The notes: a model not told the origin generated them from the letters alone. A stretch of DNA of 20,000 nt from an uncultured virus (IMG/VR IMGVR_UViG_3300000117_000017) (IMGVR_UViG_3300000117_000017), one strand, 5' to 3'. Positions 1 through 19,731 are shown, numbered from the stretch's first letter. A program made the numbers and translations.

Positions 1-50
1 TCATCAATTAAGTTTTGCTTAACTTCTTCTATCGCTCTTCTTAAGCTCAT
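1..50 (-). CDS. 5' part of a hypothetical protein running off the window (MSLRRAIEEVKQNLID...)
   Basis: ATG at 50-48 overlaps the TGA of the 47..895 ORF (ATGA coupling); frame is open to the window edge. Confidence 0.65.
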   Translation of the reverse strand, partial: MSLRRAIEEVKQNLID

Positions 51-895
51 CTTTTCATACTCCCTATTTTTTTCTTAGTACCAAAATCTTTAGTATCAGC
101 TTTGGATATCATACCTTTGATACCTGCTCCAGGATCTGCTTTTCCGTGATAGCCATCAGCATAACCGGGTGGAAGTTTTTTTACTTTACCACCTTTCATT
201 TTAAATGCTGCAATAGCTGCGTCATGTGCTTTCTTTTCTGAATCAGACATTGCTTCTTTTTTCATAAGCCTGTTTGTAGCTCTATCGATACCACGTACTC
301 TCATTGAAGCTTTTCTTTCAGGACCTTTATTGTAATCTTGATCTTTATGCTTACCACCTAATTTGCCTATAGCATCTTGTGTAGAATCATCTCTACCTTT
401 TTGAAATACATCTCTTGAGGCTTTGCCAATATAATTCTTTGCAAGATTCTTTGATATTTCATTTACTTTAGATTCGTTTTGTTTTCTTAAAACTGCTGCA
501 ACTTGAGGATGTTTATCAATATCTTTGGAGATTTTATTCATAGCTTTTACAGCACCAGTCATATTTCCTTTTTTATATCGAGGATCAGATGCTATACCAA
601 TTGCTTGTTTAACATGTTTAGCGTCGTGCGCTTCATCTACAGATTCTTTTTTACCTTTACCGCTGAGGTCTGAATCGGCACCGTAGTAAGTACCTTTACC
701 TTTTCCAATATAAGAATTGACTCTTGCCATTGCCCACTGTTGAGGTGTGGTTCCTGGCCTGTGACCGGTTTTCCAAGCTGCCATTCCTCTATTATATACT
801 TTCTTTAAAGTACCATAAGATATGCCAGACTTTGCCGATTTTTTCTTGAGTCCTTCGTTTTCGAATAACTCTTGATGGGTTGAAAATTTAAGCAT
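47..895 (-). CDS. Basic hypothetical protein with DUF5824-like N-terminal domain; candidate internal head protein
   Basis: 282-aa ORF; segment LKKVYNRGMAAWKTGHRPGTTPQQWAMARVNSY resembles a conserved viral domain (recalled as DUF5824); Lys-rich; overlaps upstream gene. Confidence 0.7.
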   Translation of the reverse strand: MLKFSTHQELFENEGLKKKSAKSGISYGTLKKVYNRGMAAWKTGHRPGTTPQQWAMARVNSYIGKGKGTYYGADSDLSGKGKKESVDEAHDAKHVKQAIGIASDPRYKKGNMTGAVKAMNKISKDIDKHPQVAAVLRKQNESKVNEISKNLAKNYIGKASRDVFQKGRDDSTQDAIGKLGGKHKDQDYNKGPERKASMRVRGIDRATNRLMKKEAMSDSEKKAHDAAIAAFKMKGGKVKKLPPGYADGYHGKADPGAGIKGMISKADTKDFGTKKKIGSMKR

Positions 896-2078
896 TAGCT
901 TTACTCCTGTTTTTAATTTTTCTAACTTTAGCTCGATCTAACATTCTAGCATGTTTAATCTTATCAACTATTTTTTCTCTTTCAATTTTTTTCTTAGCGA
1001 GGTCTACAGCATCTTCACCATACATTCTTCTATACTTTAAAGTATGTTTACTTGGTTTAGTTTTAGCTGTTGCATCACCAGGTGCTTTCTTGTATGCTGC
1101 CGGATTATCATCCGACATTTTAGCGTGTTTTTTGAAATGTGAAAGTCTTTTAGTCTTAGTAGATTTCGAAAGACCTTTGAAGTATGGAGCCGGTTGAGTA
1201 CCGGGTGCTTTCTTTACATCAGGATCTTGCTTTACTTTCTTCGGTGCTTCTTGTTTCTTTTCTACTAATTCAATATCAGTTAACCATTTTCTATAAGACC
1301 TACCATTTGATTCTACAATGACATAATTACTTCCAAGATTGGTAACAGTAGCGAGTTCGTCACTGCCCATGAAAGCAACACTGTCACCAATATTAAACAG
1401 AGTTCCTTTAACATATGCCTCTCTTTCTTCAGAGACTGGAGTAAAGTGTAATGTAGTTTTATATTCTTTTTGTTCTTTTAATCCCATTCCACGACGTACT
1501 TCATTATATACTTTCTTAGCTTCATTATTCGAAACACTTCTAGGTAACCCTTGTGAGAATTGTGTAAAGTCTCCTTTACTCGCCAAATTTCTCATCTTTG
1601 ATGCTGACATACCTGATACGTCATCTGCATCTGGATCACGGTCTCCAGCTGAAATTACGTTTATTTTGTTAAACTTATAAAGTCCATGTCTTCCTTTTAC
1701 ACCATTGTATTTTTCTAATAACTTTTTAAATTCATTAATCCTGTCTGAGCCAACAACCATATTGATATTCTTATATCCTTCTGAATATAATTTAGTTGCT
1801 GCATCAAATACATTCTTAACTTTCTTATCAAGCATTACACTTCTGGCGTGCTTTGGAAAAAATTTACGGACCGTCTTAATTTTATAATTATAGTTCAAAG
1901 GGTTTTTCTTGTTATCTGTAGATTGAGATAGATACACTCTGTATGGGTTACTACCTGATTTTTTAGATAACTCATTCATTAACTTTTCATGACCCGATGT
2001 AGGTGGATTCATACGTCCAAAAGTAAAGTATACAGTTTTGTCTTCTTCAATAAGAAATGATCTAAACGAATTTATCAT
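888..2078 (-). CDS. HIGH-superfamily nucleotidyltransferase (cytidyltransferase/NMNAT-like) with basic C-terminal extension
   Basis: FTFGRMNPPTSGH (HxGH-type motif), MVVGSDR and MSASKMR (KMSKS/SxT-type motif); family common in marine T4-like phages. Confidence 0.85.
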   Translation of the reverse strand: MINSFRSFLIEEDKTVYFTFGRMNPPTSGHEKLMNELSKKSGSNPYRVYLSQSTDNKKNPLNYNYKIKTVRKFFPKHARSVMLDKKVKNVFDAATKLYSEGYKNINMVVGSDRINEFKKLLEKYNGVKGRHGLYKFNKINVISAGDRDPDADDVSGMSASKMRNLASKGDFTQFSQGLPRSVSNNEAKKVYNEVRRGMGLKEQKEYKTTLHFTPVSEEREAYVKGTLFNIGDSVAFMGSDELATVTNLGSNYVIVESNGRSYRKWLTDIELVEKKQEAPKKVKQDPDVKKAPGTQPAPYFKGLSKSTKTKRLSHFKKHAKMSDDNPAAYKKAPGDATAKTKPSKHTLKYRRMYGEDAVDLAKKKIEREKIVDKIKHARMLDRAKVRKIKNRSKANA

Positions 2079-5673: not shown

Positions 5674-6141
5674 TTAAAATCGAAGAAGAAATCTTGCTAT
5701 GTGACCAACAAACGGAAGTAACGCTACAGCCATTAAGAGATTGACTCCAGTATGAGCCATAGCTATTCTGAGTGTATCACCTTTAGGCATACCATCAGAA
5801 ACTAGAAGTCCCGCTAACCAAATTGTACCAGTAGTTCCAATATTGGCGCCAAGAACTGCAGCAATTGCTGCAGGAAGGGGGACAGCGCCTGATGCCACAA
5901 GGGCAATTATTGCGGTGGTTGAAAGACTTGATGATTGCCATAACAGTGTCATCACAATTCCTCCAACAAACATCCAATAAGGATTATGAATAAAGAAGTT
6001 AAGATGTTCTAAGTTTCCCATGGATTTCATTCCACCTGAAAACATTTTAAGACCTATATAAAAAACAACAAGTCCAACGAGAGTAGTCATTATGGGATTG
6101 CCTAAGTCCATCTTACACACCTTTTTAATTAATTCATTCAT
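5674..6141 (-). CDS. Na+/Pi cotransporter family protein (single repeat, PF02690/SLC34-NptA-like)
   Basis: Hydrophobic 155 aa with WQSSSLST and AVLGANIGTT signature motifs. Confidence 0.85.
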   Translation of the reverse strand: MNELIKKVCKMDLGNPIMTTLVGLVVFYIGLKMFSGGMKSMGNLEHLNFFIHNPYWMFVGGIVMTLLWQSSSLSTTAIIALVASGAVPLPAAIAAVLGANIGTTGTIWLAGLLVSDGMPKGDTLRIAMAHTGVNLLMAVALLPFVGHIARFLLRF

Positions 6142-9671: not shown

Positions 9672-10271
9672 TCACTTAACATGTTCATTATACGTGTGAT
9701 GTAGTTCTCCGTGTTCTCTTCTGTAGTCTCTTTCGTGTATAGAGTATATGTGCGTGAGTATGTTATGTAGCGGATGTAGAGGCGACACGAAAGCGCCAGG
9801 GTACGGATTTTTAGATAGTATAAAACTGTCTGGATCTACCAGAATATACTCGTCTCCGTTAAAGATATAGTTGTGTGTGCCGGCGTCATTATGAAACCAC
9901 ACGGTGTCTATCATGCTCGAGTACTCTGCCATGTTGGATAAGTTTTGTAAGATCGTGGAAAAGACTTTGTACGCCACTCCATGATTGAGATTACCGTCTC
10001 TCCAAAAATGGTGTTCTACCGAAGTTCCCTCAACGTAGTCCATCACGATCCTGCTCTCGTTCACATCGTAAACTCGTGGTACTCCTCCGTACATGTTATA
10101 GTACGCGTCATAATGATACCACCAGTCTCGCATCCATCTCTTCTTTGGTACTGTAAAAGTCTTTATGACCTTATCTCCGTCGCGTTCTATAGTCGCGTGA
10201 TGAGACTTTTTAATTATCTGTTTCATTTCAAGATTTTTTTTTCTCTTAAGCAGGTTTTTTTTACTCAGCAT
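9672..10271 (-). CDS. Protein-kinase-like (APH/RIO/Kdo-kinase-type) protein
   Basis: KVIKT (beta3 Lys), VPRVY, IVMDYVEG (hinge), FHNDAGTHNY (HxD..N catalytic loop), LVDPD (metal-binding Asp). Confidence 0.7.
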   Translation of the reverse strand: MLSKKNLLKRKKNLEMKQIIKKSHHATIERDGDKVIKTFTVPKKRWMRDWWYHYDAYYNMYGGVPRVYDVNESRIVMDYVEGTSVEHHFWRDGNLNHGVAYKVFSTILQNLSNMAEYSSMIDTVWFHNDAGTHNYIFNGDEYILVDPDSFILSKNPYPGAFVSPLHPLHNILTHIYSIHERDYRREHGELHHTYNEHVK

Positions 10272-10963
10272 CCTTGACCGAGTATACCGTGTGATGGTAC
10301 GGCATTCTCTTTATCGACATTCTCAGCGAGCTCCGCATCATAGAAGTACTCTTCCGTATCTCCGAGTCGGTACTCATTGCCATTCTCGACCTGATAGTAC
10401 TCGGTAGATACTTTAAAGTCCGGCATCTTCGGATTCTTCGGTGTCAGACTATTATCATACACTCTCATTCGATTATTCGGATACAGACAGTATTGCCCAT
10501 TCTCGAGTTCAAGCAAGTTGAAAGACTTATGCTCGTCCGGCTGCTCTGCCGTAGAGTAATCAATCTCATCCGCATGTATATGGTAGTTATCCAAGGTAGC
10601 AATATAGGAACCCTTTACAAATCCATGATTCTTTGTATAGACTTCAAAATCCATAGAGCCTATAAACTGTTTCTGTATACATGTAACACCGTAGTCCATG
10701 CAATTCCAGAACTGTAGATCGGGTAATGCCATATCAACAGAGGGTGTCTCTGGATCAGCAACAAAGGCACTGATCGGTAGTTTATCGAATAAGGCACCGT
10801 ACTCGGGTAAGAATGTTTCGAAATAGAAGGCACGACCCGGGATACTCTTAGCGGATACCCAGTGACCCTCGACGAATTCACCGTGTCCATCCTGGAGATC
10901 TCTCAGATACTCACGGCGTACCCATACTTTTTGGTTGGGTATATTACAAATTAAATGGGATAT
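10265..10963 (-). CDS. Conserved phage hypothetical protein (232 aa) with probable ATA start
   Basis: The frame of ORF 10265..10732 is open a further 77 codons to an ATA at 10963, 7 nt after AAGGAG; in-frame TAG at 10982-10984 bounds it. Confidence 0.75.
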   Translation of the reverse strand: MSHLICNIPNQKVWVRREYLRDLQDGHGEFVEGHWVSAKSIPGRAFYFETFLPEYGALFDKLPISAFVADPETPSVDMALPDLQFWNCMDYGVTCIQKQFIGSMDFEVYTKNHGFVKGSYIATLDNYHIHADEIDYSTAEQPDEHKSFNLLELENGQYCLYPNNRMRVYDNSLTPKNPKMPDFKVSTEYYQVENGNEYRLGDTEEYFYDAELAENVDKENAVPSHGILGQGC

Positions 10964-11494: not shown

Positions 11495-11522
11495 ATTATA
11501 CCACACCGTGCGAGAATGTAAA
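11495..11522 (-). promoter_or_regulatory. Sigma70-type early promoter (repeat copy 4)
   Basis: TTTACA-16 nt-TATAAT with TGTGG extension. Confidence 0.75.
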
Positions 11523-11881
11523 GGACTTTATGCGTTTTTATGTGATTTATTTTTGTACTAAGAAAAAATCTCCGCGAGTCTGACGGCATTAAGGTTCCCT
11601 TCTCTCCTCCCCGATACTGTAGTTTTACTCGATATACATAGTATAGAGTACTTTACACAGATTACACAGACACCATATGAGGTTATGGATAACCTTTTCT
11701 ATATAGGATATAGTACACGTGACCACACCCGATTATCTATTACTCTATATAGTAGTTATTACTATAGCGTACTGTTCTGTGAGTGTATTAATGAAGTTAT
11801 ATGGAGTATGAGAGACATGTATTATTGGATGACCCTATATTGTTCTATTATAGGATGTATTATATGGATGATATGTAGGAT

Positions 11882-12067
11882 ATGAGTAATCAATTAACGG
11901 TAAAAGATCAAGTAGTAGTGGCGTTTTATTCCTTATTAATCCTTTATTCTTTAAAGGTAGGGATGTCGAGTCATCTGGGTGTATCGATATTTGGATTCTT
12001 TTGTATGTGGATGAATCTGAAGATGTTTGATGTATATGCGTTTAAGAAGAAATATGCACAAAAATGA
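11882..12067 (+). CDS. Small membrane protein
   Basis: 61 aa with two hydrophobic segments, immediately upstream of the radical SAM gene. Confidence 0.6.
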   Translation: MSNQLTVKDQVVVAFYSLLILYSLKVGMSSHLGVSIFGFFCMWMNLKMFDVYAFKKKYAQK

Positions 12068-12081
12068 AATGACACAGTGAT

Positions 12082-13014
12082 ATGAGACTCGACGGTAAGA
12101 AAATCTTATCTATAGACAGAGACGTGTCTGACTTGACGATAATAGACTGGGTACTTGGTAACACTTGTAACTTCAATTGCTCTTACTGTTTTCCTAACGC
12201 CAACACCGGCACCGACAGAGTTCCAAGACTCGACGATGTCTTAAAAAGAAATGTATATCATCTGTTGAAAGAGATCGATGCTGTAAGTAAACAAAGGATA
12301 GTGTTTAACTTTGGTGGAGGTGAACCAACACTGTATCGCGACATCGTTCAGTTGATGGACTTCTTAAGACCTTTTGGTGAGATTGGTTTTGTATCGAACG
12401 GAAGTCGAACTGTAAGATGGTGGAAGCAAAACCTACAATATATCGATCACGTATTGTTGTCTTATCATTCTGAATATACGGATCTCGAACACATGGCCAA
12501 AGTTATCGAGTGTATCAAGGACGATGTCGGTTTACGAGTACATGTGATGGTAAATCCTAAGTTATTTGACGAGTGTATCGACGCGTATAGTACTCTATCA
12601 GACAGATTTAGTGATGTTAACTTTCAACTTAAGACTTTAAGAGAAAACGGAAGAGTGATAGAGTACTCGCTCGAACAAGAGGTGATCATCAAGGATAACA
12701 TACACCAACCTCTCATGAAACCATCTTGTAAAGTAAACTGTGATGGAGAGATCTTTGATCTACAACTCCATCACGTGAAGAATTTACGAGGTACTTTTAC
12801 TGGATATCGTTGTTACGCTCATCACGACTTCATACAGATAGACAGTAGAGGTTTTATAGGAACAATGTCGTGTGGACAAAACTTTACGAAAAAATCAAAC
12901 ATTTATCTTAAGTCTTTTGTCGATAATTTTATATTGCCTAAATATAGTATAAGTTGCGAACGAGACATTTGTGGATGTATAGGTTTACTTTGTTCTAGGA
13001 AAGAATATGTATGA
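12082..13014 (+). CDS. Radical SAM protein with C-terminal Cys-rich (Twitch/SPASM-like) region
   Basis: CNFNCSYC (CxxxCxxC), FGGGEPTL, VSNGS; C-terminal CYAHH…IDSRG…SC…CERDICGC. Confidence 0.9.
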   Translation: MRLDGKKILSIDRDVSDLTIIDWVLGNTCNFNCSYCFPNANTGTDRVPRLDDVLKRNVYHLLKEIDAVSKQRIVFNFGGGEPTLYRDIVQLMDFLRPFGEIGFVSNGSRTVRWWKQNLQYIDHVLLSYHSEYTDLEHMAKVIECIKDDVGLRVHVMVNPKLFDECIDAYSTLSDRFSDVNFQLKTLRENGRVIEYSLEQEVIIKDNIHQPLMKPSCKVNCDGEIFDLQLHHVKNLRGTFTGYRCYAHHDFIQIDSRGFIGTMSCGQNFTKKSNIYLKSFVDNFILPKYSISCERDICGCIGLLCSRKEYV

Positions 13015-13447
13015 TACGAAAAAGATAATAGAAGAGATTATGTCTCTACCTCGCTTTGAGGATCAGATATGTTTACAAAGTGACGAGAGCGGAGACCCGT
13101 TTCTTGGCTGTGGAGTTAATCGTAACGACACAGCACTCGTAAGAAAAATCTTTGACACACCCGTACTGAACAGCATTATAGATGATCACAACCTTTATAG
13201 GACTCGAGTCATGAGAATGAGATCGAAGACGTGCTATACTTATCATCAAGATCCTACGAAGAGACTACACGTGCCCGTGGTGACTAACGACAAGTGTTTC
13301 CTAGTTGTTGATGACGAGGTAGTCAGGTGTCCTGATATCGGAAGACCTTACGTCATCGATACCACAAAGTTACACACGGCAGTCAACGCTTCTACAGAGA
13401 CTCGAATTCATATCGTTGGATGTATTCCACATGATACAAGAAATTAA
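13007..13447 (+). CDS. Aspartyl/asparaginyl beta-hydroxylase-like Fe(II)/2OG oxygenase
   Basis: YTYHQD…RLHVPVVTN…DTTKLHTAVN…RIHIV (HxD…H facial triad plus Arg). Confidence 0.8.
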   Translation: MYDTKKIIEEIMSLPRFEDQICLQSDESGDPFLGCGVNRNDTALVRKIFDTPVLNSIIDDHNLYRTRVMRMRSKTCYTYHQDPTKRLHVPVVTNDKCFLVVDDEVVRCPDIGRPYVIDTTKLHTAVNASTETRIHIVGCIPHDTRN

Positions 13448-13910
13448 CTGCATAGAGTACGATAAAGATTTAATATTACAAGAATGTGACGAGGCTTCGT
13501 ACGAACCGTACTTTGATCCTTTAGGTGGTAAGAGCCTTGACTACTGGATGATATGTAAAGACGTAGGACCTTACACGAACGAGATCAACAGACGAATGAG
13601 CAAAATTTTAGACGTACAGTGTCATCCTCGTTATTATATCTTAAAAGATAAGTGTGAAGTACCGTGGCATGTTGACAGAGGTACGAAGTGCGCGATTAAC
13701 ATGATACTGAGTACGGATCAAGACCCGATATGGTTCCGACGCGATGGCACCGTAACATCACACTCTTACTCTTTTTCACTGATCGACGTTCAGACAGAAC
13801 ATCGAGTAGAAGCTGTCACCGAACCAAGAAAACTTTTTAAGATGTCTATATTTGATATTGATTTTATGAAAGCGAAGAAGAGACTTGATCTTTACAAGAT
13901 CTCAACGTAA
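13431..13910 (+). CDS. Fe(II)/2OG oxygenase-like (cupin) protein
   Basis: VPWHVD…CAINM…IDVQTEHRV…RKLFK; ATG at 13431 preferred over the TTG at 13416. Confidence 0.65.
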   Translation: MIQEINCIEYDKDLILQECDEASYEPYFDPLGGKSLDYWMICKDVGPYTNEINRRMSKILDVQCHPRYYILKDKCEVPWHVDRGTKCAINMILSTDQDPIWFRRDGTVTSHSYSFSLIDVQTEHRVEAVTEPRKLFKMSIFDIDFMKAKKRLDLYKIST

Positions 13911-14433
13911 GTATGTTTTGCCAACAATTAATAGAGTCACTGTTATCTACACAAGTATATTTTAATTCATCAAGGACTACACAATCGAGATCGTGATTAT
14001 TTTTAAGACGTTCTCGAGTAATGTCAATAACTTTTTTCTTCTTTATATTTTGTATCGATACGAACGGATGGAGTCCCCATTCAATCGCTGTCTTAAATTG
14101 CTTTGGTATGAATAATTGAGATGCCGCAAACATACTTGGTCTTGATACTAGAGTCTTACATCTGTATTTTTTAAAGATGTAATATCTATCAGCAGCTCGT
14201 GCGCAATCATTCCATTTATCGTGAGTCCACAATCCTGAAAAAGATATCACATCATCTTCAAAGTAAAGTACGTCAAATCTGATGTAACCATCTAATCTTA
14301 CAGTTTTATAATTATTTCGATTAACGTGGTGAATGTTATCTTCGTACGCCAGTGAAAATACTCTTGATATTTCTTGTTTATCACGTACTATATTTTTGTG
14401 AGTTGCTTTCGTAATATCCAATGTATCACCCAT
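13864..14433 (-). CDS. Hypothetical protein, possibly GNAT/acyltransferase-like fold
   Basis: 189 aa; VISFSGLW…ARAADRYYIFKKYR resembles GNAT beta3-beta4/motif A; start uncertain. Confidence 0.45.
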   Translation of the reverse strand: MGDTLDITKATHKNIVRDKQEISRVFSLAYEDNIHHVNRNNYKTVRLDGYIRFDVLYFEDDVISFSGLWTHDKWNDCARAADRYYIFKKYRCKTLVSRPSMFAASQLFIPKQFKTAIEWGLHPFVSIQNIKKKKVIDITRERLKNNHDLDCVVLDELKYTCVDNSDSINCWQNILTLRSCKDQVSSSLS

Positions 14434-15128
14434 CCTGATATATCATAATGTTTTAACTTATACTGTTTGACATCTTTATGATGCTCGTCATGGTTACCAT
14501 CTCCAAATACTAACCAGTTTAACCAATTCACGTATCGTGGAGCTCCGTCTTTGTGTAAGAAGAAAGTAGTGAGGCCTTGAACCATGACGTTAATTGCCGA
14601 AGGTATACAAAATCCAAATACAACTCCTTGTGGTCCAAATAATATCGCTATCGTTGCCACGTACGCTATTATCATTAAGTAGTAGTACTTATGAGTCATC
14701 ATAAGAAACTTGTCTTTGAAAAGATATTTTACGTATCTAAGTTCGATATTATAGTCGTAATTTAAAGTTATAAGACTTAAAAATCCTTTTTTAGAGTCGT
14801 GTGGATCTTCTGGAGTGTCGTGCTTATCGTGATGTTTGTTATGAACTCCACACCAGCCAAACACTGAACCAGAGCCAGACAGTAAACCAAGAGTCGTACA
14901 TAAGTATTTTGTAAAAGTATTTCTAAACTCAAATGACTTATGAGAGTAAAATCGGTGAAAAGTACACACCATTCCTATGCACATATATAAAAAGTACATC
15001 ACTAATATTGTCACAAGATTAGTGATTGTTATTCCATACACTGATACGTAAATTAAAGACGCTATTAAATTTAATAATAGCGATAATCTTAATTTAGTTC
15101 CAGAACTCTCGAAAGTTCTCGTTAGCAA
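14388..15128 (-). CDS. Membrane fatty acid desaturase (delta-9/DesC-like)
   Basis: His boxes HRFYSH, HNKHH and HDEHH, plus DTPEDPH and transmembrane segments; TTG start with AAGGAG 7 nt upstream. Confidence 0.9.
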   Translation of the reverse strand: MLTRTFESSGTKLRLSLLLNLIASLIYVSVYGITITNLVTILVMYFLYMCIGMVCTFHRFYSHKSFEFRNTFTKYLCTTLGLLSGSGSVFGWCGVHNKHHDKHDTPEDPHDSKKGFLSLITLNYDYNIELRYVKYLFKDKFLMMTHKYYYLMIIAYVATIAILFGPQGVVFGFCIPSAINVMVQGLTTFFLHKDGAPRYVNWLNWLVFGDGNHDEHHKDVKQYKLKHYDISGWVIHWILRKQLTKI

Positions 15129-15705
15129 CTAGTTTCTCCTTAGCTTCTTTAAAAGTCATTTGTTTTATTCTTAGTTTAAATAACACTCTATCCTCGTCGA
15201 TTTGTTTTGGTACGGAATGAGCGTGATTAGTGTTAATTAATGCTACGTCATAATAAAAATGTCCTACATCCTTGAAAGATATTGGAGTCCGTTCTCCTTT
15301 TACTAAAAAATTAATAGCACATAACGTTTCGCCATCAATGTGGTAGTGAACATCAGCTCCTTCTTTTTGAGTAAGAAATCTAGGACCTAAATTATCTACC
15401 TGTAATAACCTTTTAAAAATCGCATGCAAACGTTCTGATTCACTGTTAGAATCATTATCTAAACTTGAAGATATCTTCCAATCCCTTTGATTATTAAACC
15501 AATCTTTATCCTCAACATCATAGCTGATAGTATCTTTTTCAATAAATCCTAGTCTTTTATATCTCTCAAGATTCTTTTCATTTATTGCATTATATCTAAC
15601 GGAACTAGATTCTTTTAATAACTTATCTTTATCGTGATTGATTTTAAAATGATATATAACGTCATCTTTTAAATCGTTTAATCTGTCGTCTACTATGCTA
15701 CTCAT
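15094..15705 (-). CDS. Fe(II)/2OG oxygenase-like (cupin) protein
   Basis: VHYHID…CAINF…INTNHAHSV…RVLFK; same motif layout as 13431..13910. Confidence 0.65.
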   Translation of the reverse strand: MSSIVDDRLNDLKDDVIYHFKINHDKDKLLKESSSVRYNAINEKNLERYKRLGFIEKDTISYDVEDKDWFNNQRDWKISSSLDNDSNSESERLHAIFKRLLQVDNLGPRFLTQKEGADVHYHIDGETLCAINFLVKGERTPISFKDVGHFYYDVALINTNHAHSVPKQIDEDRVLFKLRIKQMTFKEAKEKLVANENFREFWN

Positions 15706-15863
15706 TAAGATACTTGCACAGCTACGTATATTAACATACCAAAGATACCGATATTAATCATCATATTGATGTAGTGCGGGTTGGGTGTCATAATCTTTCT
15801 CCTTTTTGACTGAGGTGGTTTGTATTCATTACCACCCGTGTATTCAATGAGTCTTCCCCACAT
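15705..15863 (-). CDS. Small membrane peptide (52 aa, or 28 aa from an internal ATG at 15791)
   Basis: Read manually; GGAGG before 15863 and AAGGAG before 15791; C-terminal hydrophobic helix; TAATG overlap downstream. Confidence 0.55.
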   Translation of the reverse strand: MWGRLIEYTGGNEYKPPQSKRRKIMTPNPHYINMMINIGIFGMLIYVAVQVS

Positions 15864-15864
15864 G

Positions 15865-16077
15865 TTATCCTCCTATCCACGTGTTGACTTCGAAGACTTC
15901 GATCATCATGAAACTAAAGAGCAGAAGTAGAATACTCCACAGTATCAGTTTACCACTGAAGTTTGTCGCCGCCATCTTGATCGCGATCAGTTCATTACCG
16001 AGGAATCTGAGTGCCAGTTCAAACTCGTTGTGTTCATCTTTAATAACGATACCGTTCTTTTTTTCTACTTCTGCCAT
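15865..16077 (-). CDS. Small membrane protein
   Basis: 70 aa, C-terminal TM segment, AGGA RBS. Confidence 0.7.
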   Translation of the reverse strand: MAEVEKKNGIVIKDEHNEFELALRFLGNELIAIKMAATNFSGKLILWSILLLLFSFMMIEVFEVNTWIGG

Positions 16078-16086
16078 AATTTTATC

Positions 16087-16320
16087 CTATTGTTTTTCGC
16101 CTACATAAGCATATAGCTTATTTGCGGTTTCAATGAGATCAACCGGCTGATACATCAGTGGTGAGTGATCATTGACCGCGTCCATGATGTCCATGCGTTT
16201 TTCTTGCGCCTGATCGATCATTCTATACATAATATCCTGTTGTAAACAGAACTGTGTATCGGCCATCTCTTTGGCCATTCTTAAAGTTTCGAGTCTTATT
16301 TCGTATGCGTTTTTAGACAT
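16087..16320 (-). CDS. Conserved phage hypothetical protein
   Basis: 77 aa, AGGAGG RBS; NAYEIRLETLRMAKEM…ANKLYAYV pattern recalled from T4-like phage ORFs. Confidence 0.75.
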   Translation of the reverse strand: MSKNAYEIRLETLRMAKEMADTQFCLQQDIMYRMIDQAQEKRMDIMDAVNDHSPLMYQPVDLIETANKLYAYVGEKQ

Positions 16321-16343
16321 ATTGTCCTCCTGTGTGTGTTAAT

Positions 16344-16605
16344 GGTGAGATTCTGTTTCCACGCTCTCACCGGGCGCATAAGAATTAAGCAGCTTGCGCT
16401 AACTCTTGAGGTGCAAAATTATCGTTTGCATTTAGTATATTGTTCGCATTAACCGAGCTTACATCCGGATAACTCCACATCGTTATTGTACCTGTCGATC
16501 CTATTTCAGCCCCATCAGAAATACTCGATAATAGTATTTTTGGTGGAGCTGTCGGGTACTGCCCCCGAGTCCAGTGAACTTTTCACTTTGTTTCATCGTT
16601 ATATA
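16344..16605 (-). ncRNA. ssrA: Circularly permuted (two-piece) tmRNA, alphaproteobacterial type
   Basis: Minus strand: acceptor piece ending TCGGG-GGCAGTA-CCCGA-CAGCTCC-A-CCA (CCA ends 16541); 27-nt intervening hairpin; coding piece starting GGGGCTGAAATAGGATCGAC (16513), giving a G3-U70 pair; tag ANDNFAPQELAQAA* at 16429-16385; outer ends approximate. Confidence 0.95.
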
Positions 16606-19029: not shown

Positions 19030-19180
19030 CGTCTTTAGACCTTTTATTATCTCTTACAATTACTTTAATTGAAAATGGATTTGGATCTTCTTCATCGCAC
19101 CAATCACATGGTACACCCTTCTGAAATCCCATTATATCTCTTTTCACACAACAGTAGTGTTCCCACCATTCTTCTTCCAT
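19019..19180 (-). CDS. Small Cys/His-containing protein (53 aa, MEEEWWEHYCCVKRDIMGFQKGVPCDWC...)
   Basis: Read manually; TAATG overlap with the hydrolase stop; HxC…CxxC possible Zn site. Confidence 0.65.
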   Translation of the reverse strand: MEEEWWEHYCCVKRDIMGFQKGVPCDWCDEEDPNPFSIKVIVRDNKRSKDDGE

Positions 19181-19731
19181 TATTTTTCCCATCTATAGAA
19201 AATATGATTAGCTATTATTAGAGTTTTAGTTTTTTGTTTACGCCATGATGGAAATACATAGTCGGCATGGTAATGTGTTGCACCATAAGTTATATCATCT
19301 TTATATTGACCAAAGAATATCGTTCTAGCTATTTGAAGTGCAACATCATAAACTTCTCTATCATATATAGGAATATCATCGCTTTTACCATCACAAAACC
19401 AGCTGAATTGACATCTGTTTTTAACCGGAAAGTATTTTGTTTTGTCTTTCCATGATGGTCTAGTAGGACCTTGTTGTATAACTTCACAATAAGTATTAGG
19501 ATAACGATCATCGCTAACACGGTTATCAACAACAAATGCAACCGCAAACATACCTTTAACTGGCTGGTTGCGTGCTTCCCAATAGATGTTATCGGCTAAA
19601 CATACAATCTGTTGGTGTGCGGTACCTTCATATTTCGATGCTGCATATGATTGTGGACTACAGAATGATAGTCCTATAAATCCTATAGTACCTGCAATAA
19701 ATGCTTTCATGGCATTGATATTGTTAAGCAT
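19180..19731 (-). CDS. Cell wall hydrolase, SleB/Hydrolase_2 family
   Basis: CLADNIYWEARNQ (catalytic Glu), VDNRV, CQFSWFCDGK, GATHYHADYV and NHIFY motifs; N-terminal signal/TM. Confidence 0.92.
   Translation of the reverse strand: MLNNINAMKAFIAGTIGFIGLSFCSPQSYAASKYEGTAHQQIVCLADNIYWEARNQPVKGMFAVAFVVDNRVSDDRYPNTYCEVIQQGPTRPSWKDKTKYFPVKNRCQFSWFCDGKSDDIPIYDREVYDVALQIARTIFFGQYKDDITYGATHYHADYVFPSWRKQKTKTLIIANHIFYRWEK

Follow-up and report, generated by a model that had tools for sequence, protein, structure and literature searches.

Among the closest described systems to the locus considered here, a group of six overlapping enzyme genes at positions 12,082 to 15,705 of a 20,000-nt stretch of DNA from an uncultured virus (IMG/VR IMGVR_UViG_3300000117_000017; the whole stretch is called the window below), are the variable islands of marine T4-like phages. 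According to the accessible part of one report (Sullivan et al. 2010, PMC3037559), 14 of 16 cyanomyophages carry numerous 2-oxoglutarate (2OG)-Fe(II) oxygenases. As for pelagimyophages, the accessible part of another (Zaragoza-Solas et al. 2020, PMC7029224) describes large variable regions with cassettes of radical S-adenosylmethionine (SAM) genes, and an AspH gene that is core to all of these phages. The islands of both groups, which are non-syntenic, resemble the window in having several oxygenase paralogs together with radical SAM genes. However, what these texts describe, as far as they were accessible, are separate auxiliary genes (related to the 2OG pool, DNA repair, and lipopolysaccharide, LPS), and no unit of desaturase, GNAT, and oxygenase appears there. 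The six genes of the window, designated O1 to O6, are the following.

O1, 12082-13014, plus strand: radical SAM enzyme of 310 aa with the cluster motif CNFNCSYC and a Cys-rich C-terminus; a variable accessory gene
O2, 13007-13447, plus strand: small AspH-family Fe(II)/2OG oxygenase of 146 aa
O3, 13416-13910, plus strand: predicted Fe(II)/2OG oxygenase of 164 aa, O3/O6 family, with a TTG start or an ATG start at 13431
O4, 13864-14433, minus strand: divergent protein of 189 aa with a predicted GNAT fold, founding member of a mostly viral family
O5, 14388-15128, minus strand: predicted compact Δ9-type membrane fatty-acid desaturase of 246 aa, with a TTG start
O6, 15094-15705, minus strand: predicted Fe(II)/2OG oxygenase of 203 aa, O3/O6 family

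Regarding the desaturase, cyanomyophages are reported to carry the Δ9 lipid desaturases vFAD-I and vFAD-II (Roitman et al. 2017, PMC5776448, accessible text). Like O5, these are phage-borne membrane desaturases of the Δ9 (DesC/SCD) type with three His boxes, they belong to marine T4-like myophages, and they are presumed to act on acyl chains of the host membrane, as O5 would. The vFADs, however, are described as branching beside picocyanobacterial DesC, whereas O5 is shorter and at most 32% identical to its 80 best cellular relatives, which are mostly cyanobacterial. Given this distance, O5 has no recent host donor. In the main text of PMC5776448, to which a term search was limited, the terms oxygenase, 2OG, hydroxylase, and radical SAM do not occur.

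Among GenBank phages, the only relative of O5 (29% identity) belongs to the cultured marine T4-like Pelagibacter phage Mosig EXVC030M (MT647606, genes 00072-00090), which is like the window in that an Asp_Arg_Hydrox gene lies directly upstream of this short FA_desaturase gene. The Mosig island also contains three radical SAM genes, TauD, a second AspH, an N-acetyltransferase, a nitroreductase, and aminotransferases. In contrast to the window, it spans about 13 kb and adjoins tail-fibre genes, its N-acetyltransferase falls outside the O4 family, and no O3/O6-family gene was detected in it; the island is known from predicted annotation alone. A preliminary description of the window, made from the sequence, had stated that each of these families occurs singly in marine T4-like phages, which is contradicted by the multi-oxygenase cyanomyophages, the pelagimyophage cassettes, and the Mosig island.

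The six ORFs (open reading frames) were found at the coordinates given by that description and in the same arrangement, as two convergent blocks of three. According to the coordinates, neighbouring genes overlap by 8 nt (O1/O2), 32 nt (O2/O3, or 17 nt with the ATG start), 46 nt (O4/O5), and 35 nt (O5/O6), and the convergent 3' ends of O3 and O4 share 47 nt. Its family labels (radical SAM, three Fe(II)/2OG oxygenases, GNAT-like protein, and desaturase) also stand, being backed by Pfam and fold searches. The main result of the comparison with related loci, which are denoted by L numbers below, is that O6, O5, and O4, in this order, form a conserved and essentially virus-only module that joins a new oxygenase family, a Δ9-type desaturase, and a new GNAT family. 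The plus-strand genes O1, O2, and O3 are a changeable accessory set of tailoring enzymes and not a fixed part of the module.

A profile scan for the short desaturase returned 392 viral stretches that encode relatives, of which the 80 best were examined. Neighbouring ORFs were taken by a simple longest-ORF rule and labelled with hidden Markov models (HMMs) built from the alignments of this analysis. With desaturase matches weaker than 1e-10, the window's own record, and Mosig excluded, 110 genes remained, which were reduced to 67 at 90% identity. An O4-family gene is present within four genes of 30 of these 67 non-redundant viral desaturases, an AspH or O3/O6 oxygenase within four genes of 36/67, and both of them in 22/67. 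The GNAT stands at position +1 in 9/67 cases and at +2 in 7/67, and an overlap of 1-46 nt between the GNAT start and the desaturase stop is present in all 9 cases at +1. When the desaturases are grouped into clades at 50% identity, 9 of the 16 clades have a linked member. The frequencies of the same families in differently seeded sets of loci are given below.

Viral desaturase-seeded loci (n = 78): O4 family 43, O3/O6 family 20, AspH-like 39
Viral radical-SAM-seeded loci (n = 76, 1.06 Mb): O4 family 0, O3/O6 family 0, AspH-like 25
Bacterial desaturase-seeded loci (n = 80): O4 family 1, O3/O6 family 0, AspH-like 2

These control counts show a specific link of the O4 and O3/O6 families with the desaturase. 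AspH-like genes, in turn, are general island residents, since 25 of the 76 loci seeded with radical SAM genes carry them.

A metagenome scan seeded with O4 gave 17 loci, of which two represent the window's own sequence and another two duplicate contigs of IMG/VR. An oxygenase lies beside the GNAT in 16 of the 17, the exception being a fragment of 1.2 kb, and a desaturase is present in 10; five of the seven loci that lack it are short or incomplete contigs of 1.2-6.7 kb. The order O6-type oxygenase, desaturase, O4 is kept in L257, L258, and L260-L263, at 61-100% O4 identity. The plus-strand block changes: O2 is missing from L258 (90% O4 identity), where an O3-type gene and an O1-type radical SAM gene are present, L263 has three O3/O6-type genes, and L261 has neither. 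The preliminary description had named a failure of the genes to co-occur in other genomes as the observation that would speak against its proposal. Co-occurrence, specifically in viral contigs, was found for the O6-type oxygenase, the desaturase, and the O4-type GNAT; O1 and O2 are not conserved partners. Its idea of a joint pathway therefore holds for some of the genes, given their recurrence and the fusion reported below, and fails for all six as one unit; a fixed six-gene pathway is contradicted by L258 and by O1-like genes that elsewhere sit in arrays of several radical SAM genes.

The link between the GNAT and the oxygenase is also seen within a single protein. Among the 150 best representatives of the O4 family, one (P0081, 353 aa) consists of an O4 domain (residues 4-169, 4.4e-24) followed by an O3/O6 domain (residues 189-350, 2.2e-29), and its BLASTP match to O6 has an E-value of 8e-15. 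Since 33 contigs under several Tara accessions carry this 353-aa form, it is no accident of assembly. P0135 (414 aa) and P0157 (346 aa), which also belong to the O4 family, have extra C-terminal halves of about 190-230 residues that matched no family, and their full-length forms each occur on several contigs. As oxygenase fusions they were rejected, with hhalign probabilities of 2.1% and 0.1%, respectively, and no support from Pfam or PDB.

As for the individual proteins, O5 matches FA_desaturase (PF00487) with an E-value of 1.4e-11 and 45.1 bits (cut-off 29.7). It aligns to human SCD1 (4zyo, 8.6e-9) over residues 22-117, which comprise transmembrane helices 1-2 and His boxes 1-2, and mouse stearoyl-CoA desaturase was also aligned. 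The three His boxes (H58/H63, H96/H99/H100, and H213/H216/H217) are invariant in an alignment of 13 viral sequences, and the TTG start is backed by the N-termini of aligned homologs. Judged from this similarity, O5 is a Δ9-type membrane desaturase with intact di-iron histidines, the regiospecificity being predicted. Many viral loci (L115, L116, L118, L119, L122, L123, L144, L155, L174, and L175) contain two or three desaturase genes of 244-282 aa, which are immediate tandem neighbours or are separated by one or two genes, and are convergent in L115; in several of them an O4-family gene lies just upstream on the opposite strand.

The preliminary description had proposed that the ORFs at 13431 (O3) and 15094 (O6) are paralogous, which is confirmed by BLASTP (E = 1e-13, 34% identity over 88 residues), and the alignment pairs the motifs PR(Y/F), HxD, CAIN, H.V, and R.LFK of the two proteins. 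Neither they nor O4 belong to any Pfam, PHROG, or NCBIfam family, and no oxygenase family of Pfam or NCBIfam matches O3 or O6 even at E ≤ 1. Sequence-only PDB searches with the O4 and O3/O6 profiles likewise gave nothing below an E-value of 0.1. In an alignment of 18 family members including O3, residues H122, D124, H163, and R173 (O6 numbering) are invariant; from their position, H122/D124/H163 would be the iron triad and R173 the basic residue that binds 2OG. When compared by hhalign with an AspH-like alignment centred on O2, the O3/O6 family matches with a probability of 85.6% (E 5.6e-6), and the HxD, His, and Arg columns are paired. The AlphaFold model of O6 (predicted local distance difference test, pLDDT, 89.5; predicted template modelling score, pTM, 0.86) is a double-stranded β-helix with 183 PDB matches at E ≤ 1e-3 in Foldseek. 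The VIA search, which is independent of Foldseek, gives a best Z of 11.7 and a root-mean-square deviation (rmsd) of 2.9 over 145 residues for 6f0w, and all 50 best rows listed are 2OG oxygenases. Based on this model, O6 is assigned to the Fe(II)/2OG oxygenases as a member of a new AspH-related family, and O3 is placed with it as a probable Fe(II)/2OG oxygenase by homology.

Regarding O4, the AlphaFold model (pLDDT 86.3, pTM 0.85) has the GNAT element order β1-α1-α2-β2-β3-β4-α3-β5-α4-β6-β7. Foldseek reports 110 PDB matches at E ≤ 1e-3, those listed all being GNAT proteins, and the VIA search gives a best Z of 11.1 with 130 chains at Z ≥ 8 (for 1mk4, rmsd 3.4 over 144 residues). According to the model, O4 is a GNAT-fold protein of a new family. 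The earlier description had left a choice between GNAT and a LuxI/FeeM-like protein for 13864..14433, of which the GNAT fold is upheld and LuxI/FeeM could not be shown to be the better model. The 50 best VIA rows are all acetyl- or acyltransferases, and LuxI and FeeM are not among the VIA or Foldseek matches listed, an absence that does not exclude them; no Pfam match to LuxI/FeeM-type families was seen for O4 or the relatives scanned. A complex prediction for O5 with O4 (score 0.00, mark 0.32) speaks neither for nor against binding.

The O4 family has no relative in 185,579 species-representative genomes, and a pattern scan of IMG/VR gave three loci only. An HMMER search of 1.84 billion representatives yielded 277 clusters at E ≤ 1e-3 and 131 at E ≤ 1e-10, and a search of the ESM Atlas with O4 returned unnamed viral clusters (best score 0.87) and no lead. 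Three contigs binned as Bdellovibrionales (L178, L179, and L242) share the island repertoire of the phages: they contain desaturase and nitroreductase genes, an O4-family GNAT (L179), and P4H, AspH, TauD, and PhyH oxygenases, together with a HisC-type aminotransferase, methyltransferases, a flavin mononucleotide (FMN) reductase, and a short-chain dehydrogenase/reductase, and in L178 these genes lie next to three GT2 glycosyltransferases. These contigs are either phage or prophage DNA in the bins or the only cellular lineage that shares the module. A nitroreductase-family gene is also found beside the module and convergent with the GNAT (L080:4929-5585, L094:10731-11396, and L179:3247-3858), and in Mosig it likewise stands beside the AspH-desaturase pair; it could be a redox partner.

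O2 matches Asp_Arg_Hydrox (PF05118) with an E-value of 6.2e-9 and 36.3 bits (cut-off 22.6). In the AspH-like alignment built around it, H80, D82, H123, and R133 are invariant, which gives the HxD...H triad with the downstream Arg. Its relatives at 47-58% identity occur in 11 viral loci, and BLASTP detects no similarity of O2 to O3 or O6. Among PDB entries, the O2-family profile matches Cpz10 (7v4f, 4.1e-24), proline cis-4-hydroxylase (2.4e-9), and human AspH (0.52). Cpz10 (PDB 7V4F), a small AspH-family enzyme of about 180 aa, is the closest solved relative of O2; it is described in the accessible text of PMC9814697 as an α-ketoglutarate-dependent β-hydroxylase that acts on a small-molecule substrate in the biosynthesis of the nucleoside antibiotic caprazamycin. 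It differs from O2 in belonging to an actinomycete antibiotic pathway, and no other caprazamycin gene was seen in the window. As a lipid A hydroxylase LpxO, O2 was rejected on its score (NF033391, 18.2 bits against a cut-off of 500).

O1 matches Radical_SAM (PF04055) with an E-value of 9.1e-13 and 49.1 bits (cut-off 29.5) as well as phrog_13987 (2.2e-14), and CNFNCSYC near its N-terminus fits the CxxxCxxC pattern. PDB matches cover the radical SAM core only (7tol, 2.1e-7). For the Cys-rich C-terminus, no SPASM (PF13186) match was found at E ≤ 1, and N_Twi_rSAM reaches 31 bits against a cut-off of 170. The best NCBIfam match is viperin_w_prok (NF038283); with 53 bits against 180 and residues 20-132 alone covered, O1 was rejected as a viperin or prokaryotic viperin. 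Viral relatives of O1 occur in 76 loci, all at no more than 39% identity. The 73 further O1-like genes of the loci seeded with radical SAM genes typically have three to six more radical SAM or CxxxCxxC proteins as neighbours, and an O1-type gene followed directly by AspH and O3-type genes is seen in the window only; in L050, an O1-like gene follows a desaturase. Since its relatives sit in radical SAM arrays and partners change between loci, O1 is an interchangeable accessory. The arrays in L002-L077 consist of consecutive proteins of 300-510 aa, some with SPASM domains, and look like the "radical SAM cassettes" of pelagimyophages.

As to function, the reading on which we would put about even confidence is that O6, O5, and O4 form a linked module for tailoring a lipid or an acyl amide. 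The lipid direction is suggested by the alignment of O5 to stearoyl-CoA desaturase, the small-molecule substrate of Cpz10, and a parallel among ornithine-lipid enzymes: according to the accessible text of PMC12971839, OlsC and OlsD (AspH/LpxO family) hydroxylate the acyl chains of ornithine lipids, and the di-iron enzyme OlsE hydroxylates the head group. Together with OlsB, these enzymes are like the module in combining an N-acyltransferase, 2OG hydroxylases, and a His-box di-iron membrane enzyme, and the likeness is one of analogy only. The Ols system differs in that O5 is a relative of Δ9 desaturases and not an OlsE-type hydroxylase, and O2 falls far below the LpxO cut-off (18 bits against 500). 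OlsB has a GNAT-like fold. No OlsB-type Pfam match was seen for O4 or the relatives scanned, and no phage protein considered here is a member of an Ols family. A literature search, whose coverage excluded most subscription journals, found no published description of the module.

Under the lipid or acyl-amide reading, O6, O5, and O4 would work on a common acylated substrate, on the cytoplasmic side of the host membrane. O4, the GNAT, would make or use an acyl-amide (N-acyl) linkage, the acyl chain would receive a double bond from the desaturase (O5), and the chain or the head group would be hydroxylated by the oxygenases, so that a modified lipid or lipo-amino compound would arise in infection; the plus-strand genes O1, O2, and O3 could add further tailoring. 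A more specific version, which we put forward tentatively and consider doubtful, is a pathway confined to viruses in which an N-acyl synthase of the O4 family, a desaturase, and 2OG hydroxylases make a hydroxylated, unsaturated, amide-linked lipid in the infected cell, this product being a phosphorus-free membrane lipid or a lipo-amino-acid signal. Phages would then encode a multi-step lipid pathway without a cellular counterpart. A pathway of the sphingolipid type was rejected, as the aminotransferases that recur beside the desaturase are of the HisC/CobD type (best hisC, 3.5e-43, L179) and not α-oxoamine synthases.

Until now, the lipid genes of phages have been regarded as lone auxiliary genes, the Δ9 desaturases of cyanophages being an example. 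A conserved module of three enzymes that is restricted to viruses, with a new acyltransferase-fold family of at least 277 sequence clusters and a new oxygenase family, would mean that abundant ocean phages go beyond tuning the saturation of host lipids; they may assemble a particular lipid or lipo-amino compound, or remodel one, in the course of infection. The module is small (about 1.8 kb for O6, O5, and O4), and it also offers a way into the function of the oxygenase-rich variable islands of marine T4-like phages, which are poorly understood.

Several observations weigh against a linked pathway of this kind. Within O5's own clade, which has 7 non-redundant members, GNAT or oxygenase neighbours are seen in the window and L080 only; the closest O5 homologs (63-69% identity; L078, L079, L081, L101, and L102) adjoin very large structural-type ORFs and have no cassette neighbour. 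As this clade is mostly unlinked, the desaturase can evidently work alone. More generally, an O4-family gene is lacking within four genes of 37 of the 67 desaturases, the O4 family is absent from Mosig despite its AspH-desaturase pair, and in L094 a radical SAM gene unrelated to O1 takes the place of the desaturase between the O6-type and O4-type genes. The locus counts are also not fully independent, because the loci come from related phages. As for O4 itself, the canonical GNAT motif for binding the acyl-CoA pyrophosphate is Q/R-x-x-G-x-G/A after strand 4. Inspection of the alignment shows that O4 has no G-x-G/A there and instead carries the segment KKYR(C/S)K..L, with R91 invariant; residues 91-100 have low model confidence (pLDDT 58). 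Its structural neighbours are ordinary acetyltransferases, with no known N-acyl-amino-acid synthase among those listed.

A rival explanation draws on some of the same facts. The genes may be independent auxiliary genes gathered in a recombination hot spot, their clustering reflecting insertion-site preference and tandem duplication. Each enzyme would then have a host target of its own: membrane lipids for the desaturase, as shown for the cyanophage vFADs, the 2OG pool, nucleic acids, or proteins for the oxygenases, and some amine for the GNAT. Such an origin would fit the gene content, which varies from contig to contig, the closest O5 homologs, which stand alone in 5 of the 7 non-redundant clade members, and the expansion of paralogs (O3/O6, and up to three or four AspH/cupin genes per locus), including tandem desaturases in L115, L118, L123, L174, and L175. 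It also agrees with the AspH-like genes in 25/76 radical-SAM-seeded loci and with the multi-copy 2OG oxygenases and hypervariable regions described for such phages in the accessible parts of PMC3037559 and PMC7029224. However, mere gathering in a hot spot does not account for the O4 family being present in 43/78 desaturase loci and in none of the radical-SAM-seeded viral islands (1.06 Mb), for start/stop overlaps kept at 27-40% protein identity, for a gene order maintained over 61-100% O4 identity, or for a natural fusion of GNAT and oxygenase. We therefore regard this explanation as possible and, on balance, unlikely.

A second rival, to which we give little credence, is the tailoring of a peptide or protein, in which the radical SAM enzyme, the AspH- or prolyl-hydroxylase-like oxygenases, and the GNAT would act on a peptide like those that are ribosomally synthesized and post-translationally modified (RiPP-like, possibly lipidated), or on a virion or tail-fibre protein. 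It is suggested by the best structural matches of O6, which include AspH and prolyl hydroxylases, among them a viral collagen prolyl hydroxylase (Z 11.4), by the Cys-rich C-terminus of O1, whose relatives neighbour SPASM-domain radical SAM enzymes, and by two small ORFs just 5' of O1. Comparable islands, moreover, adjoin tail-fibre genes (Mosig) or an LtfC-like gene (L084), and the O5 homologs in L078 and L079 adjoin giant structural-type ORFs. However, no conserved precursor peptide was found, the 61-aa ORF 5' of O1 has no tblastn match across 94 loci, and O1 is not conserved with the module. The O2-family profile also favours Cpz10 (4e-24) and proline cis-4-hydroxylase (2e-9) over human AspH (0.52), and it is not obvious what a membrane desaturase with four helices would do on a protein.

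Tailoring of a nucleotide-sugar, a cell-surface glycan (LPS or O-antigen), a nucleoside, or a DNA base by the oxygenases, GNAT, and radical SAM enzyme appears highly improbable: related islands do contain glycosyltransferases (L080; three GT2 in L178), ArnB-type and HisC-type aminotransferases, a carbamoyltransferase, methyltransferases, and QueC-like PP-loop enzymes (the latter seen in L092 and L093), L093 adjoins DHFR and thymidylate synthase, the window has cytidylyltransferase-like genes at 47-2078, and LPS-related genes are abundant in pelagimyophage variable regions (PMC7029224, accessible text), but none of such partner genes lies inside the window's cassette, and what O4 and O6 are specifically conserved with is a membrane desaturase of the lipid type.

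According to its conserved genes, the window comes from a marine T4-like myophage, an assignment made by sequence comparison. It is part of a 73 kb IMG/VR contig estimated to be about 41% complete (CheckV). The conserved flank genes are closest to those of the uncultured Phage C48C1 (56-66%) and Methylophilales phage Melnitz (47-54%) and more distant from those of cyano- and pelagimyophages (36-40%), and genes for T4 gp59, DNA ligase, DHFR, and thymidylate synthase are present in related loci. The cassette region is a segment of a hypervariable island with two convergent operons, next to which the following small ORFs were noted.

Two small hydrophobic ORFs (66 and 61 aa), 11685-12067, plus strand: putative genes from the ORF list, directly 5' of O1
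Three small ORFs (52, 70, and 77 aa), 15705-16320, minus strand: upstream of O6, with gaps of at most 9 nt

The minus-strand operon probably reaches beyond 15705, through the three small ORFs, up to 16320. In L080 (91%), L094 (65%), and L092 (78%), the module is accompanied by a tblastn match to the 70-aa ORF. The best promoter-like site on the minus strand, at 16640-16612, matches 11 of 12 positions of the consensus, and this is a consensus match only. The promoter scan found 32 sites against 22.7 ± 5.0 in shuffled sequence and the terminator scan 1 against 2.5, both near the shuffled expectation, so these sites are hints only.

Among GenBank phages, no DNA match to 11500-16500 was found, and tblastn gave no match for O1, O3, O4, or O6. 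Near-identical DNA, in contrast, is present in marine metagenomes from many studies dated 2012 to 2025. A 7.9 kb contig from another run spans 11606-16340 with 175 differences, so the six genes remain together in a variant that has diverged by about 4%. The 22 runs listed as sharing cassette DNA include no RNA, which has no bearing on expression, and one run labelled as a cave metagenome contains 0.34 of the cassette's sampled words, which has no bearing on habitat. The cassette was also considered as a mobile block with fixed ends. This was rejected: the left loose end is an edge effect, with 20 of 30 letters matching the window just upstream. The right loose end of related contigs, at about 16340, falls in an intergenic region.

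Further genes of the window were noted outside the cassette; no gene for a carrier protein was seen among them. The ORF at 5674-6141 (minus strand, 155 aa) carries a Na+/Pi-cotransporter domain (PF02690, 1.1e-15) that amounts to a fragment of a normal transporter, and may be a phosphate-related auxiliary gene or a remnant. The protein encoded at 10265-10732 (minus strand) matches phrog_3704, "ferredoxin", with an E-value of 6.4e-61 over profile positions 78-219 only and has no Pfam match. This label was dropped for both reasons, and it probably belongs to a domain that is absent here; a 220-aa relative of the protein adjoins the module in L091. At 47-2078 (minus strand), two adjacent genes encode DUF5824 and a cytidylyltransferase-like region (phrog_3041 and phrog_395, "cytidyltransferase"), with DUF6267 after them, and these are conserved in cyano-, pelagi-, and Methylophilales myophages. 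The gene at 19180-19731 (minus strand) encodes a protein with a Hydrolase_2 (cell-wall hydrolase) domain, which is probably the endolysin.

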